Positions 5,424-10,417 of a stretch of 35,211 bases of DNA are shown in pieces; position 1 is the first letter of the stretch; each line of letters begins with the position of its first letter. Source of the DNA: a virus (taxonomy: Duplodnaviria; Heunggongvirae; Uroviricota; Caudoviricetes). Both the position numbers and the translations under genes were made by a program. The DNA is taken from the IMG/VR virus record IMGVR_UViG_2703718792_000017, positions 1-35,211 of that record, one strand, 5' to 3'. A model generated the notes under the pieces. The model made no database searches. It was not told where the DNA came from and saw nothing but the letters and a program-made list of their open reading frames with translations.

Positions 5424-6267
5424 TTTGCTGCTCCTCATCATATCGACCCTGCAAGGCCGATTAGTTTCTCCACAAAACAGAGAAGAACACCTGCGGTGGC
5501 TGCCGCCCGGATGGATTGGGTTATGAGCCCGTCGTCCGGTGATGCTCTTCTCTGTTTTGTAAAAAGAGCGGTACCAGCCGGAAGCAAGTGTACAAACTGG
5601 TACCGCCAAAGCAGTGGCTGTTGTGGTGGGGTTGTCACTCAGGCGTATGGTCAACCTGACAATCCGGTGTCCTCAACGGGGAAAGAGTAACCCCGCCATA
5701 CTTACCGCCGCGCCATTTCGCGGATTACCACAACGCTGAGAGCACTTAGCCAGTTACGGCACCACACTTTGTCGCGGCTCCATAAATACCCTCATCGTTG
5801 CACCCTGGTCTCTTCCCAGGCGTCAAACCGGATCGCCACGCTGGTTAGGCGTCTTATCAGCATCATCATTGACTTGCACATTCCGGCTACCTGGTTTGTT
5901 TGCCCGAGCAAGGAGTGGATTGTCCCCTTTAACGTCCCCAGACCGCTAACGACGCATGTGCCATACGCCGTGTTACAATAAAATGTTCGGTATTAGTTAC
6001 CAAAGAGACGATTACTCTTATGGTTGAATGTAATACCCCTGTTGAATATTTTCTTGTGTACTATTTGTTTTTCCTATATAACGAATTGGTTGTTTTGTTT
6101 ACATAATAAGAAGTTTTTTTAAATAAGTTTACATTGTTTTGTCTTGCTATTTTTCAAAATTCAAGAACAATGAATTGTCGCTATCGGTAATTATTCTTTA
6201 TGAAATTTTATAAATAACTCCCTGCTTTTGAGTTTTGTACGCAGTGTTTTTAGTTGTCGAGGACATA

Positions 6268-6477
6268 ATGGATAATCAAAATACTCCTGTTTTTGATGTA
6301 TGTGGTTGGTACTGTGTGCCAGTTAAAGATCATAATTCAGTTATAGTTCAACTGTCCTGCAAACAACCACCATTTGAATCTGATAAAATTATCGAAAGTC
6401 CAATATATTCTTTTCCCATAAAAGAAATACCAAATCTCATAAATACATTACAAAACATTTATGAAGAAAATAATTGA
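6268..6477 (+). CDS. Small AT-rich moron protein of unknown function, 69 aa
   Basis: ATG at 6268 with GAGGA 5 nt upstream; preceded by a very AT-rich promoter-like region and followed by an intrinsic terminator; base composition far below neighbouring phage genes. Confidence 0.55.
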   Translation: MDNQNTPVFDVCGWYCVPVKDHNSVIVQLSCKQPPFESDKIIESPIYSFPIKEIPNLINTLQNIYEENN

Positions 6478-6500
6478 TTATAAATCCAGTTCAAAAGTGA

Positions 6501-6527
6501 AGCGTCCATTTGGGCGCTTTTTTATTT
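6501..6527 (+). terminator. Rho-independent terminator downstream of the small moron gene
   Basis: Hairpin AGCGTCCA-TTT-GGGCGCT followed by TTTTTATTT. Confidence 0.55.
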
Positions 6528-6596
6528 ACGAATCATTCCGGTCTTCGTATGCCCCGGACGGCTACTTCGTGGGCGTCCTGCCTGTTCGATATCTTA

Positions 6597-6619
6597 TGTA
6601 GGTACATTATGTACCTACA
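6597..6619. promoter_or_regulatory. 23-bp perfect palindrome, operator-like site
   Basis: TGTAGGTACAT-T-ATGTACCTACA, followed by a third GGTACAT half-site at 6621-6627; shares the GGTACA half-site with the cI-cro operator. Confidence 0.45.
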
Positions 6620-6636
6620 GGGTACATTGTCAAGTA

Positions 6637-6660
6637 TAAAAAAACCTGCCGAAGCAGGTT
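6637..6660 (-). terminator. Rho-independent terminator of the cI transcript
   Basis: On the minus strand: AACCTGC-TTCG-GCAGGTT hairpin followed by a T7 run, immediately 3' of cI. Confidence 0.65.
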
Positions 6661-6672
6661 CATAGACATTGA

Positions 6673-7347
6673 TCAGGCTTTAATTTTGTATCTTCTTGGT
6701 TTTCCTGAGAAAATAACTGTACCAATGATAGAGCAATTACCGTTTATCTTAATGTAAGGCTCAGGCCAGTTGGGGTTTAATGCTTTGAGATAACGCTGTG
6801 TCCCGTCTTCTATCAACCTTTTGAAGGTGGTTTCACCTGTATCGTGCATCAATGCAATAACGTCATCGCCGTGGCAGGCTGGTACTTCTGGATCGACAAA
6901 AATCATGTCTCCCGGACGGTACTCATCAATCATTGAATCACCAATCACCCTCAATATATAAGTCATTTCGCCACAGGGTACAGGGCAGGGATACGTTTCT
7001 GTTGTGCTCAAATCAACCTCAGAATAGCCAACTTCTTTCCATGCTCCGGCCTGTACCCATGATATGACAGGGACTAACGTTATTTTTTTATTAGTGATTG
7101 AAACATCAGGTTTTTTTGTGATGTTCGTTGTCTGGTGTTCTTGATCAAGCCATCCGACAGGCAGGTCGAAACATTTTTCGATGTGCCGTGCCATGCTGTC
7201 ACCGATATTTTTAGTAGCGCCATCCCCCATAAACCTGCTGGTCTGGGTAGGCTCGCGATCAATCATGGTGGCAAAGGATGAATTTCCGCCAACACCATCT
7301 CTCAGTTTTCTGGCGTTAGACCGCCGGATGTCATGGATTGTTTTCAT
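6673..7347 (-). CDS. CI-like prophage repressor (HTH plus S24 LexA-type peptidase domain)
   Basis: 224 aa; N-terminal HTH, Ala-Gly cleavage site (QAGAW), S24 catalytic Ser in GDSM and Lys in FKRL; divergent from a cro-like gene. Confidence 0.88.
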   Translation of the reverse strand: MKTIHDIRRSNARKLRDGVGGNSSFATMIDREPTQTSRFMGDGATKNIGDSMARHIEKCFDLPVGWLDQEHQTTNITKKPDVSITNKKITLVPVISWVQAGAWKEVGYSEVDLSTTETYPCPVPCGEMTYILRVIGDSMIDEYRPGDMIFVDPEVPACHGDDVIALMHDTGETTFKRLIEDGTQRYLKALNPNWPEPYIKINGNCSIIGTVIFSGKPRRYKIKA

Positions 7348-7363
7348 AACGAAATTAAAACCT

Positions 7364-7382
7364 TTGTACCGATAAGGTACAA
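7364..7382. promoter_or_regulatory. Operator palindrome in the cI-cro divergent promoter region
   Basis: TTGTACC-GATAA-GGTACAA (perfect 7-5-7 inverted repeat) in the 90-bp cI/cro intergenic region; a further AGGTACATG half-site at 7425-7433. Confidence 0.6.
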
Positions 7383-7437
7383 GTATCTTGAAGGTTCATC
7401 TCAATCATGTAGTATGTATACTGGAGGTACATGTTGT

Positions 7438-7638
7438 ATGAAAGCGTATTGGGACTCTTTAACCAAAGAACAGCAGGGCGAGTTGGCCGGAAAAGTTGGC
7501 TCAACACCTGGCTACTTACGGCTGGTTTTCAATGGTTATAAAAAAGCCAGTTTTGTGCTGGCTAAAAAACTTGAGCAATGCACGTCAAGTGCAATTACGA
7601 AATCTGACTTAAGACCGGATATCTATCCGAAAGATTAA
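7438..7638 (+). CDS. Cro-like HTH regulator, 66 aa
   Basis: ATG at 7438 with GGAGG 10 nt upstream; MKAYWDSLTKEQQGELAGKVGSTPGYLRLV has a Cro/CI-type HTH; divergent from cI. Confidence 0.75.
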   Translation: MKAYWDSLTKEQQGELAGKVGSTPGYLRLVFNGYKKASFVLAKKLEQCTSSAITKSDLRPDIYPKD

Positions 7639-7669
7639 CAGAACACCTTCAATTTTTAACCACAGAACG

Positions 7670-8233
7670 ATGAGGCTAACCGTGGGTAAGCATCACTGGA
7701 AAGTAGAAAAACAGCCTGAGTGGTACGTGAAAGCTGTCAGAAAAACTATCGCGGCGTTGCCGGGTGGTTACGCTGAAGCGGCTGACTGGCTTGATGTAAC
7801 AGAGAATGCTTTATTCAACCGCCTTCGTGCAGATGGTGATCAGATTTTCCCGTTGGGATGGGCAATGATTTTACAGCGCGCGGCTGGCACTCACTACATT
7901 GCGGATGCTGTCGCACAGTCTGCTGGTGGGGTGTTTGTATCGCTTCCTGAAATTGAGGAAGTAGAGAACGCCGATATAAACCAGCGCCTGCTGGAAGTCA
8001 TCGAACAGATCGGGAGTTACTCAAAGCAGATTCGTTCGGCAATCGAAGATGGGGTAGTGGAGCCACATGAGCAGACAGCAATTAATGATGAGTTGTATCT
8101 GTCAATTTCGAAGCTCCAGGAGCATGCAGCACTGGTCTACAAAATCTTTTGCGCTCCAGAAAAGAGTGACGCCCGCGAGTGTGCAGCTCCGGGCGTCGTG
8201 GCGTTTTGTGTCTGTGGAGAAACTAACGCATGA
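7670..8233 (+). CDS. Hypothetical early regulatory protein in the CII position (possible CII/YdaT-like)
   Basis: 187-aa ORF immediately downstream of cro. Start could instead be GTG 7682, which has GAGG upstream. Function is inferred from position only. Confidence 0.5.
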   Translation: MRLTVGKHHWKVEKQPEWYVKAVRKTIAALPGGYAEAADWLDVTENALFNRLRADGDQIFPLGWAMILQRAAGTHYIADAVAQSAGGVFVSLPEIEEVENADINQRLLEVIEQIGSYSKQIRSAIEDGVVEPHEQTAINDELYLSISKLQEHAALVYKIFCAPEKSDARECAAPGVVAFCVCGETNA

Positions 8234-8378
8234 ACAGTTTAACGGCAAATAACCGTTTGTCGCAACAGCTGGTGGTCAGTGCCGCTGAACACCTGTTGTT
8301 ACGGCGTGAATGCAGATTACCAAATCACCTGGCTGTAAGTAACCACAGAGAACTTTACCTGACTGTGGGGGGCGAGTT

Positions 8379-8558
8379 GTGCAGGAACTTAACCGCTGGT
8401 TTCGTGACGGAAGAGGGCTCTATGTTCATGTTATTCGTTGGGAACCAGAAACACAGCGTGTTATCTATCTTCGCAAAGACTACCCGCATGAGTGCTTTAG
8501 TCCTTTGTGGAAATTCAGGCGTGATTTTGTTGAGTGTGATGGACCACCAACACATTGA
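8379..8558 (+). CDS. Possible small protein, 59 aa, GTG start, absent from the ORF track
   Basis: Frame-0 ORF VQELNRWFRDGRGLYVHVIRWEPETQRVIYLRKDYPHECFSPLWKFRRDFVECDGPPTH reads as protein-like, with a G-rich ribosome-binding site upstream; falls below the 60-aa track cut-off. Confidence 0.3.
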   Translation: MQELNRWFRDGRGLYVHVIRWEPETQRVIYLRKDYPHECFSPLWKFRRDFVECDGPPTH

Positions 8559-8644
8559 TTCTGCCATTCCGGGACGTTACACTGTTCAGGCACCTTATAA
8601 AACGGGTGCCGGGCGTGGAAACCCGGAATTCACCAAAGCGCACA

Positions 8645-8668
8645 ACCGCGCTCTTGCGGTTTTTTTGT
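8645..8668 (+). terminator. Putative intrinsic terminator (tR1-like) upstream of rha
   Basis: Short ACCGC-GCTCTT-GCGGT hairpin followed by a T7 run; lies inside the non-coding 5' part of the long ORF 8230..9381. Confidence 0.4.
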
Positions 8669-8835
8669 GTCATGAGCAGCATTACGCCCAAATTATGGTG
8701 GGGCGTGCAGGGCCAACTTCGGTTGGGCCGGGTTCTTTGGTGACCGGTATTTCCACCCCTGTACGTCTCACCACCAATAAGGTCGTGGAAAGCCTTGGTG
8801 GTGAGTTATTAAAAATCACCAAAGAGGCTGCCATC

Positions 8836-9381
8836 ATGGCTACGATCCCAACCCTCACTCAACCTGAAATTGCCATCGTTGATGGTCAGGCTGTTACTTC
8901 ATCCCTAGCTGTTGCCAACTTCTTCTCCAAACGTCATGACGATGTACTGAAAAAGATCCGCACGCTTGAATGCTCAGCATCATTCACTGCCCGCAATTTT
9001 TCGGTGAGTGATTACACTGATTGCACAGGACGCAAACTTCCTTGCTACCAAATCACACGCGACGGTTTTGCGTTTCTTGCTATGGGTTTCACGGGTAAAC
9101 GTGCTGCCCAGTTCAAAGAGGCATATATCAATGCCTTTAACCAGATGGAGAAACAGCTTTCAAAGCCCTCTGTACCGAGCGACGTTGCACATAACGCCAG
9201 CGTTCTCTATTCCTACATTTCATCAATTCATCAGGCCTGGTTGCAGCAGCTTTATCCCATGCTGGAAAAAGCTGAATCACCGCTGGCAGTAAGTCTGTAT
9301 GACCGAATTAACGATGCGGCATTTCTTGCCCGTCTTATTCATTCGTCGCTGAACTCTTCAGAGGTAAGGGGGCGCAAATGA
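8836..9381 (+). CDS. Rha-family phage regulatory protein
   Basis: Internal ATG at 8836 with AAAGAGG upstream; MATIPTLTQPEIAIVDGQAVTSSLAVANFFSKRHDDVLKKIR is typical of the Rha N-terminal domain. Confidence 0.78.
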   Translation: MATIPTLTQPEIAIVDGQAVTSSLAVANFFSKRHDDVLKKIRTLECSASFTARNFSVSDYTDCTGRKLPCYQITRDGFAFLAMGFTGKRAAQFKEAYINAFNQMEKQLSKPSVPSDVAHNASVLYSYISSIHQAWLQQLYPMLEKAESPLAVSLYDRINDAAFLARLIHSSLNSSEVRGRK

Positions 9382-9602
9382 TCCGAAATATTTTCAAACG
9401 GTTTACCAATCAGACTTTCCGTTGTCCTCGTCCGGGTCAGTGGTACACCACGCCTGCAGGGCATGTTCTACGTGTTAGCCTGGTTGACCGTGAATGTCAG
9501 AAGGTGATTTGTGAACCGCTGGGCCGTAATTACCGCGTCAGTATGCCGCTTATAGCCTTTCGCTCCGGAAAAAACATGAAGCATCTCGGAGGTGCAGCAT
9601 GA
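9378..9602 (+). CDS. Hypothetical small phage protein, 74 aa
   Basis: ATGA overlap with the rha stop; G-rich ribosome-binding site; ends overlapping the next gene. Confidence 0.55.
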   Translation: MIRNIFKRFTNQTFRCPRPGQWYTTPAGHVLRVSLVDRECQKVICEPLGRNYRVSMPLIAFRSGKNMKHLGGAA

Positions 9603-10417
9603 GTATGGAGCTGATGGTTAAAGCGATGAAAATTCGAGTGGGTAATCCATTGCGAAAACTGGTTCTGATCAAGCTGGCTGATAATGCCAGCGATCAGGGG
9701 GAGTGCTGGCCCAGCTATCAGCATATTGCTGACCAGTGCGAGATTAGCAAACGTTCTGTGATGAATCATATTGCGGCCCTTTGTGAGTCCGGGCTGGTAA
9801 AAAAAGTCACCCGGAAAGGTGAAAAAGGTAACTCAAGTAATATCTATCTCCTTCATCTGGATGGTGCAGGAGATTCACTAGGGGGTAGTGCAAATAATTC
9901 ACTATCTGGTGCAGCAAATTCACCATGTAGTGCAGGAGTTGCATCAGGGGGTAGTGCAGGAGATTCACCCAGAACCAGTCACTCTTTTGAACCAGTCAAA
10001 GAATCAGTCAATGAACCAATAGCTGTTGGTGCATCAGTTGATGAGTCCGTGCGAGTTCGTTCAAACCGACCGGAATACTCTCCGGAGTTTGAGCAGGCAT
10101 GGCTGGCATATCCCAAACGTGCTGGTGGCAATTCAAAATCTGCAGCCTTCAAAGCCTGGAAAGCCCGTTTGAATGAGGGGGTAAACCCCGAAACCATGCT
10201 GGAAGGTGTGAAACGCTACGCGGGCTGGGTATCTGCGATGGGTAACAGCGGCACACAATTTGTGAAACAGGCTGTCACGTTCTTTGGTCCGGATCGTCAT
10301 TTCGAAGAATCCTGGGAAGTTCCTGCGGTATCTGCAGCCAGACGCGAGGACCCGTACTTCAAAGCCAGTTACGACAACGTGGACTACAGCCAGATCCCGG
10401 CAGGATTCAGGGGGTGA
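9599..10417 (+). CDS. Replication initiator, O-like (N-terminal winged HTH, internal iteron-encoded linker)
   Basis: GGAGG 7 nt upstream of ATG; HTH N-terminus; Gly/Ser/Ala-rich repeat region encoded by the iterons; C-terminal AWLAYPKRAGG...FFGP motif typical of phage replication proteins. Confidence 0.7.
   Translation: MSMELMVKAMKIRVGNPLRKLVLIKLADNASDQGECWPSYQHIADQCEISKRSVMNHIAALCESGLVKKVTRKGEKGNSSNIYLLHLDGAGDSLGGSANNSLSGAANSPCSAGVASGGSAGDSPRTSHSFEPVKESVNEPIAVGASVDESVRVRSNRPEYSPEFEQAWLAYPKRAGGNSKSAAFKAWKARLNEGVNPETMLEGVKRYAGWVSAMGNSGTQFVKQAVTFFGPDRHFEESWEVPAVSAARREDPYFKASYDNVDYSQIPAGFRG
9864..10010. repeat. Putative origin of replication: five about 21-bp iterons plus three GAAyCAGTCA repeats inside the O-like gene
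   Basis: GTGCAnnAnATTCAC-type units starting at 9864, 9888, 9909, 9930 and 9955; GAACCAGTCA at 9972 and 9989, GAATCAGTCA at 10001. Confidence 0.6.

Follow-up and report, generated by a model that had tools for sequence, protein, structure and literature searches.

A perfect palindrome at the probable center of the OL/PL operator-promoter region in an e14/SfV-type lambdoid prophage

The locus described here raises the question of why a 23-bp perfect palindrome should carry the half-sites of the cI-cro operators while standing outside the cI-cro switch. It lies in a window of 35,211 nt (IMG/VR record IMGVR_UViG_2703718792_000017, positions 1 to 35,211), by which we mean the whole stretch of DNA analyzed. 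This window is a lambdoid prophage, and its immunity region is that of e14, SfV, SfIV, cdtI, Ayreon, and Stx2c phages. The initial annotation had offered two explanations for the palindrome, i.e., a distal operator (an OL analogue for long-range repressor looping) or the site of a different dimeric protein. Our analysis indicates that the palindrome is very probably the center of the OL/PL region of an e14/SfV-type lambdoid prophage and that its perfect symmetry is private to this copy and probably templated.

Palindrome, leftward promoter, and candidate operators

The palindrome reads TGTAGGTACAT-T-ATGTACCTACA. Its arms (6597 to 6607 and 6609 to 6619) are 11 nt each, 100% complementary, and separated by 1 nt, and a third GGTACAT half-site follows at 6621 to 6627; on both points the initial annotation proved accurate, as it did for the same core in the cI-cro operator at 7364 to 7382. 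The 23-mer is unique in the window, even at 3 mismatches, and was matched in 0 of 100 dinucleotide-preserving shuffles. For GGTACA, 23 copies were counted in the window where 11.4 would be expected, and 9 of these copies are located within 6601 to 7431. The spacing had been regarded as different from that of the cI-cro operator, and this applies to the arms with respect to each other (7-1-7), but not to the right arm and the third half-site, which together form a site (OL1) of exactly the same 7-5-7 arrangement. A second cI-cro operator, adjoining cro, and a promoter overlapping the palindrome had been missed in the earlier reading. The positions of these and the surrounding features are listed in Table 1.

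Table 1. Features of the immunity region and the leftward promoter in the window
Feature	Position	Strand	Description
Conserved ~60-nt PL leader	6529-6588	-	Covarying stem-loop: stem 6558-6554 with 6541-6537, 12-nt loop
OL2 (candidate, weak here)	6589-6607		ATATCTT-ATGTA-GGTACAT
23-bp perfect palindrome	6597-6619		Inner half-site and 4 spacer bp from each of OL2 and OL1
PL-like sigma-70 promoter	6606-6633	-	TTGACA 6633-6628, 16-bp spacer, CATAAT 6611-6606
OL1 (candidate operator)	6609-6627		19 bp, 7-5-7, ATGTACC-TACAG-GGTACAT
Intrinsic terminator of cI	6635-6661	-	Stem 6661-6642, then T run
cI-type repressor gene, YmfK/CohE-like	6673-7347	-	ORF, 224 aa; LexA/lambda-CI-like autocleavage C-terminal domain
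OR operator adjoining cI	7364-7382		TTGTACC-GATAA-GGTACAA, 21.7 bits
Candidate third, weak OR operator	7381-7399		AAGTATC-TTGAA-GGTTCAT, over likely PR -35
OR operator adjoining cro	7414-7432		ATGTATA-CTGGA-GGTACAT, 23.6 bits
cro-like gene, YmfT	7438-7638	+	66 aa, YdaS-family helix-turn-helix; RefSeq ymfT
CII-like gene (YmfL)	7670-8233

We searched the window with the motif TGTAY-N7-RTACA, derived from the two cI-cro sites, and found exactly three occurrences (6610 to 6626, 7365 to 7381, and 7415 to 7431), where 0.05 were expected. Furthermore, a position matrix was trained on the OR sites of relatives alone, with the window and all OL sites left out. This matrix placed OL1 first among 35,193 positions with 25.5 bits, above both OR sites. 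The fourth-best score in the window (14.3 bits) belongs to the candidate third OR operator, which is invariant in relatives, a conservation that is ambiguous because the -35 lies inside it. Among relatives, the OR operator adjoining cI keeps its half-sites with a variable spacer, and the one adjoining cro shares bases with both the likely PR -10 and the ribosome-binding site of cro; the PR hexamers (TTGAAG, 7388 to 7393, and TAGTAT, 7410 to 7415) were assigned by eye and lie under the threshold of our promoter scan. The operator consensus proposed for the immunity group is WTGTAYC-N5-GRTACAW.

The left arm of the palindrome contributes the half-site GGTACAT (6601 to 6607), the proximal half of a second candidate operator, OL2. 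This half is invariant in relatives, and the distal half is degenerate here. OL2 scores 4.2 bits in the window (rank 8 of 35,193) and 14 to 16 bits in most relatives. OL1 and OL2 are separated by a 1-bp gap and are 20 bp apart from center to center, both distances being invariant among relatives.

The palindrome and both candidate operators coincide with a leftward promoter, PL, that matches 11 of 12 consensus positions and is the sole sigma-70 match of at least 11/12 on both strands of the window, against 0.37 expected under a first-order Markov model. OL1 takes up the spacer between the hexamers together with the first 3 nt of the -10, and OL2 reaches from the last 2 nt of the -10 across the predicted start site, which is likely an A at about position 6599, inside the palindrome. 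The center of the palindrome is the 1-bp gap within the -10 hexamer. Indeed, one half-site ends with the CAT of this hexamer, the gap supplies its A, and the next half-site begins with its AT, and this construction forces a 15-bp quasi-palindrome, GGTACAT-W-ATGTACC. The overlap of the palindrome with the -35 and -10 of a near-consensus promoter points to an operator-promoter of the early-left operon.

The position and direction of PL are in keeping with this assignment. The palindrome had been placed between two convergent terminators, which we confirmed (plus strand, 6499 to 6520; minus strand, 6661 to 6642). The minus-strand terminator is that of cI and abuts the PL -35, so that PL begins directly after its T run and points away from cI into the early-left genes. 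A terminator is annotated at the same place in SfV and Ayreon. The GenBank record of Ayreon annotates a promoter at the homologous place, and the record of SfV annotates the terminator and a cI-cro "putative operator region" and nothing more. The homologous promoter faces co-directional genes in relatives, namely orf33 in SfV, ymfJ in e14, and the first early-left genes of the phages EPP-1 and yong2. In e14 of K-12, the predicted start corresponds by calculation to about 1,202,185 on the minus strand.

Conservation of the layout and its repressor companion

The arrangement is not peculiar to the window. In about 170 related loci from Enterobacterales of at least 14 genera, TTGACA, the half-sites, and the 1-bp gap are kept, and the 5-bp spacers vary freely. 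After these 170 pooled loci were reduced to 100 unique sequences, the -35, half-sites, and gap retained 1.85 to 2.0 bits per position (about 1.9 for the OL1 half-sites), whereas the two 5-bp spacers retained 0.67 and 0.78 (about 0.7 for that of OL1) and comprised 38 (OL1) and 28 distinct sequences; in this pooled set half-site conservation is partly forced by the pattern used for collection, a bias from which a set selected by cI is free. In the latter, viral loci picked by cI protein identity alone, the site was present in 80 of 80, with the OL1 spacer as the least conserved stretch. TTGACA and CATAAT were essentially invariant in the 100 unique sequences. Only the inner 7 bp of each palindrome arm are conserved among relatives.

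The initial annotation had suggested searching other genomes for joint occurrence of the site and this repressor type, and such searches found the two together in every untruncated locus. When viral contigs were searched with the 15-bp core GGTACATWATGTACC and 120 matches were examined, the layout was present in 83, and a cI DNA-binding domain of 81 to 95% identity accompanied it in 77 of these 83, with a contig end truncating the remaining 6; none of the 37 matches without the layout had such a cI. In species genomes (one per species), the layout was found 20 times, and cI ended about 50 bp upstream in all 20. These species genomes represent Escherichia, Serratia, Rahnella, Erwinia, Klebsiella, Enterobacter, Leclercia, Kluyvera, Atlantibacter, Trabulsiella, Phytobacter, Pseudocitrobacter, Limnobaculum, and Entomohabitans, in addition to three assemblies with odd labels. 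All relatives with the layout have the same half-site.

The association extends to more distant repressors. The DNA-binding domain of the window repressor is 76% identical to that of Hafnia phage yong2 and 69% identical to that of Edwardsiella phage EPP-1. In both phages, TTGACA-ATGTACC-N5-GRTACAT-A-ATGTACY-N5-GAWACR stands immediately behind the cI terminator, and matching 7-5-7 sites are found at the cI-cro region. In Pseudomonas phages with a DNA-binding domain 59% identical, TGTAC-N7-GTACA is present at OR and another arrangement follows cI. Since the layout is conserved and stands beside this repressor type in every untruncated locus, we conclude that it very probably represents the OL/PL region of the e14/SfV immunity group.

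The repressor itself is named ymfK, LexA family protein, in RefSeq. Residues 93 to 212 match Pfam Peptidase_S24 (E, 1.3e-26), and the C-terminal domain matches the lambda CI C-terminal-domain structures 1f39, 1kca, and 3bdn (E, ~1e-9).

With these results, the two explanations first proposed can be weighed. The idea of an OL analogue is right in kind, as the site is built from the half-sites of the cI-cro operators and has a constant repressor companion, but it does not stand as a distal site mainly for looping, as the site overlaps the -35 and -10 of a leftward promoter. A promoter-less auxiliary operator that tightens repression by long-range looping with OR would account for half-sites that are the same as those at OR, for a distance of 755 to 805 bp between OL1 and the OR operators, and for a repressor C-terminal domain homologous to the octamerization domain of lambda CI. 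The coincidence with the sole near-consensus promoter of the window argues against it, as do promoter hexamers that are as conserved as the half-sites and the co-directional early genes in relatives; we therefore regard this explanation as very improbable. Looping between OL and OR over this distance is plausible by analogy with lambda and could occur in addition, but it is unnecessary to explain the site. As for a different dimeric protein reading the 11-1-11 palindrome, this proposal is not supported, given the location of the outer 4 bp of each arm in freely varying spacers and the absence of the 23-mer from every other sequence searched.

The most serious of the rivals concerns the 15-bp core GGTACAT-W-ATGTACC. 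This 7-1-7 core might be a binding site in its own right, e.g., for Cro or a second regulator, so that control of PL would differ from that of PR, a reading to which we assign a low probability. OL1 and the adjacent inverted half-site are kept in every relative, the gap is always exactly 1 bp, and the half-site is retained even in loci with a replaced distal half of OL2 (L128, L145, L156, L163, L185, and L191); besides, GTAC is self-complementary, so that a half-site is in principle readable in either orientation. On the other side, the arrangement is absent from the cI-cro region of the phage and its relatives, where Cro must act, and no additional candidate regulator accompanies the site. 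Part of the invariance can also be accounted for by the -10 hexamer (CAT-A-AT), together with a half-strength cooperative OL2. Moreover, most relatives keep a half-site-like distal half (GAAACAA, GGAACAG, or GATACAC) behind a freely varying 5-bp spacer, and a recognizable distal half behind such a spacer is the signature of a 7-5-7 site. On the OR-trained matrix the 7-1-7 register scores -48.9 bits, a value which means that it is not 7-5-7 and which leaves other registers untouched. There is a low probability, too, that Cro, or a repressor subunit that bridges dimers, reads the core in a second binding register; in that case the leftward promoter would have a control logic unlike that of the cI-cro switch.

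Two 7-5-7 operators on PL thus remain the preferred description, with some latitude regarding OL2. Its distal half is absent in several lineages while the proximal half-site stays invariant, and, given this loss and the weakness of OL2 here, there may be one operator and a half-site rather than two full operators. We also considered whether a super-consensus OL1 compensates for a weak OL2; this was rejected, as the scores of OL1 and OL2 correlate positively over 77 unique pairs (Spearman, +0.32), i.e., there is no trade-off.

Origin of the perfect symmetry

Although the core is general, the perfect palindrome is not. The arms around the gap are 5 to 8 nt long in 97 of the 100 unique relatives, compared with 11 in the window and 13 in locus L175. 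We found no exact copy of the 23-mer in IMG/VR, in 185,579 species genomes, or in 5,426 complete E. coli genomes; among the last, the best match over 66 bp was 97%. The nearest relative, E. coli 377323_2f, shows only 4 differences from the window over 5600 to 9800, and 3 of the 4 (6613, 6617, and 6618) fall in a 6-bp stretch of the right arm. This region reads ATGTGCC-TGTAG in 377323_2f and ATGTACC-TACAG in the window. Each of the three substitutions creates complementarity to the unchanged left arm. The spacer TGTAG is common to other members of the lineage, implying that the allele of the window is the derived one.

Because the clustered changes all raise complementarity, we ascribe them to template switching: the three substitutions most likely arose in one event correcting a quasi-palindrome, with gene conversion from an unsampled allele as a possible alternative source. 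Template switching that corrects quasi-palindromes is a well-established source of mutations, and templated mutation of this kind was reportedly described by Ripley in 1982 and in later work from the Lovett laboratory. The present case resembles it in the clustering of substitutions within 6 bp, in the perfecting of an inverted repeat that had been imperfect, and in a background that is otherwise nearly identical (4 differences in 4.2 kb), but differs from it in that two natural alleles were compared here rather than a mutation event observed. The substitutions also restored the consensus GTAC core of the half-site in OL1, which scores 14.1 bits in 377323_2f and 25.5 bits in the window, and this restoration could explain the persistence of the allele. 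We therefore regard the perfect symmetry as a by-product rather than a recognition element.

We find it extremely improbable that the palindrome works at the level of DNA or RNA structure, be it as a cruciform, as a hairpin for termination or processing, or as a site of recombination or attachment, or that it is a host LexA box. Its perfect 11-bp arms and its location between two terminators in a mosaic-prone place would suit such a role. Nevertheless, the perfect form was found in none of the other sequences searched, the outer arm bases are unconstrained in relatives, and the mosaic joints lie about 70 to 150 nt further downstream rather than at the palindrome. Furthermore, with the predicted start inside the palindrome, the PL transcript would not contain the palindrome. 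The individual candidates of this kind were rejected. A LexA box (CTGT-N8-ACAG) is not formed, since on the minus strand (CTGTAGGTACATAATG) ACAG does not occur at the distance that such a box demands, and the CTGT falls in a spacer that is variable among relatives. An intrinsic terminator is not formed either, since the center is 1 nt, no T run follows on either strand, and the palindrome did not appear in the terminator scan. No Rfam match was obtained at the palindrome at E values up to 1.

Early-left region and comparison with known systems

Downstream of PL, the leader is conserved across genera, and the sequence beyond it is mosaic. The leader contains a stem-loop in which 96.7% of cells pair, against 58% or less in slid controls, and two-sided changes occur in 48 cells compared with 12.2 in shuffles, none of 500 shuffles reaching the observed value. 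The single-sequence fold of the window leader was no better than that of shuffles (z = -0.39), and the evidence for the hairpin is thus comparative. In many relatives, the leader hairpin is followed by a perfect rrn-type boxA, GCTCTTTAACAA, on the PL strand, which has decayed to CACTTTTGAAC in the window. Downstream of PR, no convincing second leader hairpin or consensus boxA was found, the only candidate being ACTCTTTAACCA inside cro (7454 to 7465).

In this window the conserved leader is followed by an inserted cargo gene ("moron") on the opposite strand and then by yfdP-, yfdQ-, and yfdR-like genes on the minus strand, left of PL; the predicted PL transcript therefore has to cross the inserted gene antisense to get to the early genes, a point that counts against the model. 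The cargo gene is AT-rich (ORF at 6268 to 6477), is absent from SfV and Ayreon, and owns the plus-strand terminator-like hairpin mentioned above. Farther left, 5440 to 5990 is a highly structured non-coding stretch; phage P1 carries the first ~180 nt of it as well, between trnI and ban.

The closest counterparts are e14 (between ymfK/cohE and ymfJ), SfV, SfIV, cdtI, Ayreon, and Stx2c phages, whose repressors are 97.8 to 100% identical in phage records. They share the layout TTGACA-ATGTACC-N5-GATACAT-A-ATGTACC after the same terminator. They differ from the window in having GATACAT and different spacers, which give an imperfect palindrome with arms of 5 to 8 nt, in the better distal half of OL2 (GAAACAA), and in lacking the opposite-strand cargo gene.

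As in the OL1-OL2-OL3/PL region of lambda, the candidate operators share the consensus of the OR operators and overlap a strong leftward early promoter beyond cI, adjacent candidate sites are separated by about two helical turns, a distance that would suit pairwise cooperativity, and the repressor C-terminal domain is homologous to that of lambda CI. Derepression after RecA-stimulated CI autocleavage would be a further likeness, assumed here by analogy. In contrast to lambda, the operators here are 19 bp (7-5-7, with a GTAC core) instead of 17 bp, one strong site and one weaker site take the place of three, and OL1 lies inside the -35/-10 spacer. PL follows directly after the cI terminator with no rexA or rexB between, and OL is about 0.75 kb from OR; the OL-OR distance in lambda is about 2.3 to 2.4 kb. 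No N gene has been recognized in this phage group (PMC3851460).

On the basis of these comparisons, we infer that the region would work as follows. The strong leftward promoter (TTGACA-16-CATAAT) would drive the early-left operon, with the two putative 19-bp operators, 1 bp apart, sitting on it. In the lysogen, CI dimers would bind OL1 and, cooperatively, the weaker OL2 two helical turns away, thereby blocking RNA polymerase, and RecA-stimulated autocleavage of CI would release PL. Cro presumably acts through the same sites as CI. In the literature that was reachable, we found no binding, footprint, or start-site data on this immunity type, and that on the SPC32H repressor had no bearing on the operator. 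Expression data from E. coli K-12 are nevertheless suggestive. In a dam mutant, ymfJ was the most up-regulated transcript, alongside the SOS genes recN, recX, and yebG (PMC11741368), and ymfJ belongs to the YmfT iModulon together with intE, xisE, sulA, and recN (PMC12132413). A rise of ymfJ with SOS genes is what one would expect if its promoter were under the control of an SOS-cleavable repressor.

The region is an ordinary lambdoid feature and leaves the understanding of lambdoid switches unchanged. Annotation in the records examined had so far been confined to the cI-cro operator region or a predicted promoter. A putative operator consensus and early-left promoter are now defined for a very common immunity group of Enterobacterales, to which e14 of K-12, Shigella phages that convert serotype, and phages carrying cdt or Stx2c belong. 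The palindrome, besides, appears to be a clean natural example of a multi-base templated mutation perfecting a quasi-palindrome, and the proposed operators on PL may provide a testable explanation for the SOS-like behavior of ymfJ in K-12.

The PL leader and the adjoining hairpin-boxA arrangement

We compared the leader of the transcript from PL, the predicted leftward early promoter, among related loci. Across many genera, this leader of about 60 nt was retained, and the sequence 3' of it was mosaic. Its 5-bp stem was paired in 96.7% of the cells in the comparison of relatives, and two-sided changes occurred in 48 cells, versus about 12 in shuffles. Compensatory variants were abundant (CCTGG/CCAGG, CCGGT/ACCGG, CCCCA/TGGGG, and TCCGG/CCGGA, among others), while the 12-nt loop, GGCRTAYGAAGW, was conserved. 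No match to the leader was found in Rfam.

A hairpin (GCGCCC-N4-GGACGC) followed by GCTCTTTAACAA was found on the PL strand, 3' of the leader, in 70 of the 170 pooled relatives, a count that takes in the degenerate copies found in the window's lineage. The GCTCTTTAACAA of the relatives is the exact boxA consensus of rrn operons, in which the hairpin likewise precedes boxA; in the window, boxA has decayed to CACTTTTGAAC. An N gene is reportedly absent from this phage group (PMC3851460), and the hairpin-boxA element could be an antitermination site using host factors only. The hairpin pairs more strongly on the strand opposite PL, with G-U there versus C-A on the PL strand, and on that opposite strand it is a canonical terminator.

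A boxA-like sequence, ACTCTTTAACCA, was also located on the PR transcript, within the first codons of cro. It may be a chance match, because seven matches at this level were found in the window versus 2.4 expected.

Features of the window and of related phages
Feature	Position	Strand	Evidence or location
PL transcript leader, ~60 nt	6529-6588	minus	conservation among relatives
Leader stem, 5 bp	6558-6554 with 6541-6537	minus	compensatory changes
Hairpin and boxA position	6489-6520	minus	comparison with loci L018, L006, L104, L121 and others showing the arrangement
Candidate third OR operator, weak (AAGTATC-TTGAA-GGTTCAT)	7381-7399		matrix score 14.3 bits, window rank 4
tRNA-Gly (anticodon CCC), Hafnia phage yong2	L083 2867-2940		within PL leader
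vB_Pae_CF3a regions compared	L085 1900-2000 and 2820-2895		cI-cro region and downstream of cI
boxA-like ACTCTTTAACCA	7454-7465	plus	boxA matching, 10/12 positions
GC-rich stretch, ~550 nt	5440-5990	minus	between inserted gene and yfdP-like gene
AT-rich insertion	6060-6527		comparison with phages SfV and Ayreon
69-aa ORF in insertion	6268-6477	opposite to PL strand	ends at plus-strand terminator 6499-6520
C4 target sites, weak match	8577-8629	plus	Rfam
isrK-like RNA	8590-8666	plus	Rfam, 67.9 bits
C4 antisense RNA	8691-8778	plus	Rfam, 83.6 bits

Predicted operators in the window and its relatives

The predicted repressor operator OL1 (6609-6627) scores 25.5 bits in the window versus 14.1 bits at the homologous position in the closest relatives, L086 (E. 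coli 377323_2f) and L003, where one half-site is damaged to ATGTGCC (GGCACAT on the other strand). A weak site that may be a third OR operator adjoins the operator at 7364-7382 and lies on top of the likely PR -35 element. In Hafnia phage yong2, the tRNA-Gly separates the operators from the first early-left gene. Pseudomonas phage vB_Pae_CF3a, whose repressor DNA-binding domain is 59% identical to that of the window, has two sites in its cI-cro region that clearly fit TGTAC-N7-GTACA, plus a third that is degenerate; downstream of cI there are two CTGTATATACA palindromes instead.

Early-left insertion, structured stretch, and antisense RNAs

The 69-aa ORF of the AT-rich insertion had no match in Pfam or NCBIfam, and the PL transcript must pass through it in antisense. 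At least 80% of window positions 5600 to 7700, which span the insertion, was covered in only 29 of 5,426 complete E. coli genomes.

The GC-rich stretch lacks a convincing ORF and gave no match in Rfam. It folds at -220 kcal/mol versus -188 in shuffles (z = -4.6), with stems of 25 bp and 13 bp. Its counterpart comes directly after PL in Ayreon and locus L138. Over the first ~180 nt of the window's stretch, identity is 77% to unannotated sequence lying between trnI and ban in phage P1/P7. A tRNA-Arg annotation underlies the match in an O157 typing phage.

The isrK-like, C4, and C4 target matches all fall within the 5' part of a 383-aa ORF (8230-9381) labeled as a Rha family regulator in RefSeq, and this ORF is therefore probably over-extended. 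Given these RNA matches (8577-8778), the phage probably also has an antisense-RNA immunity layer of the P1 type.
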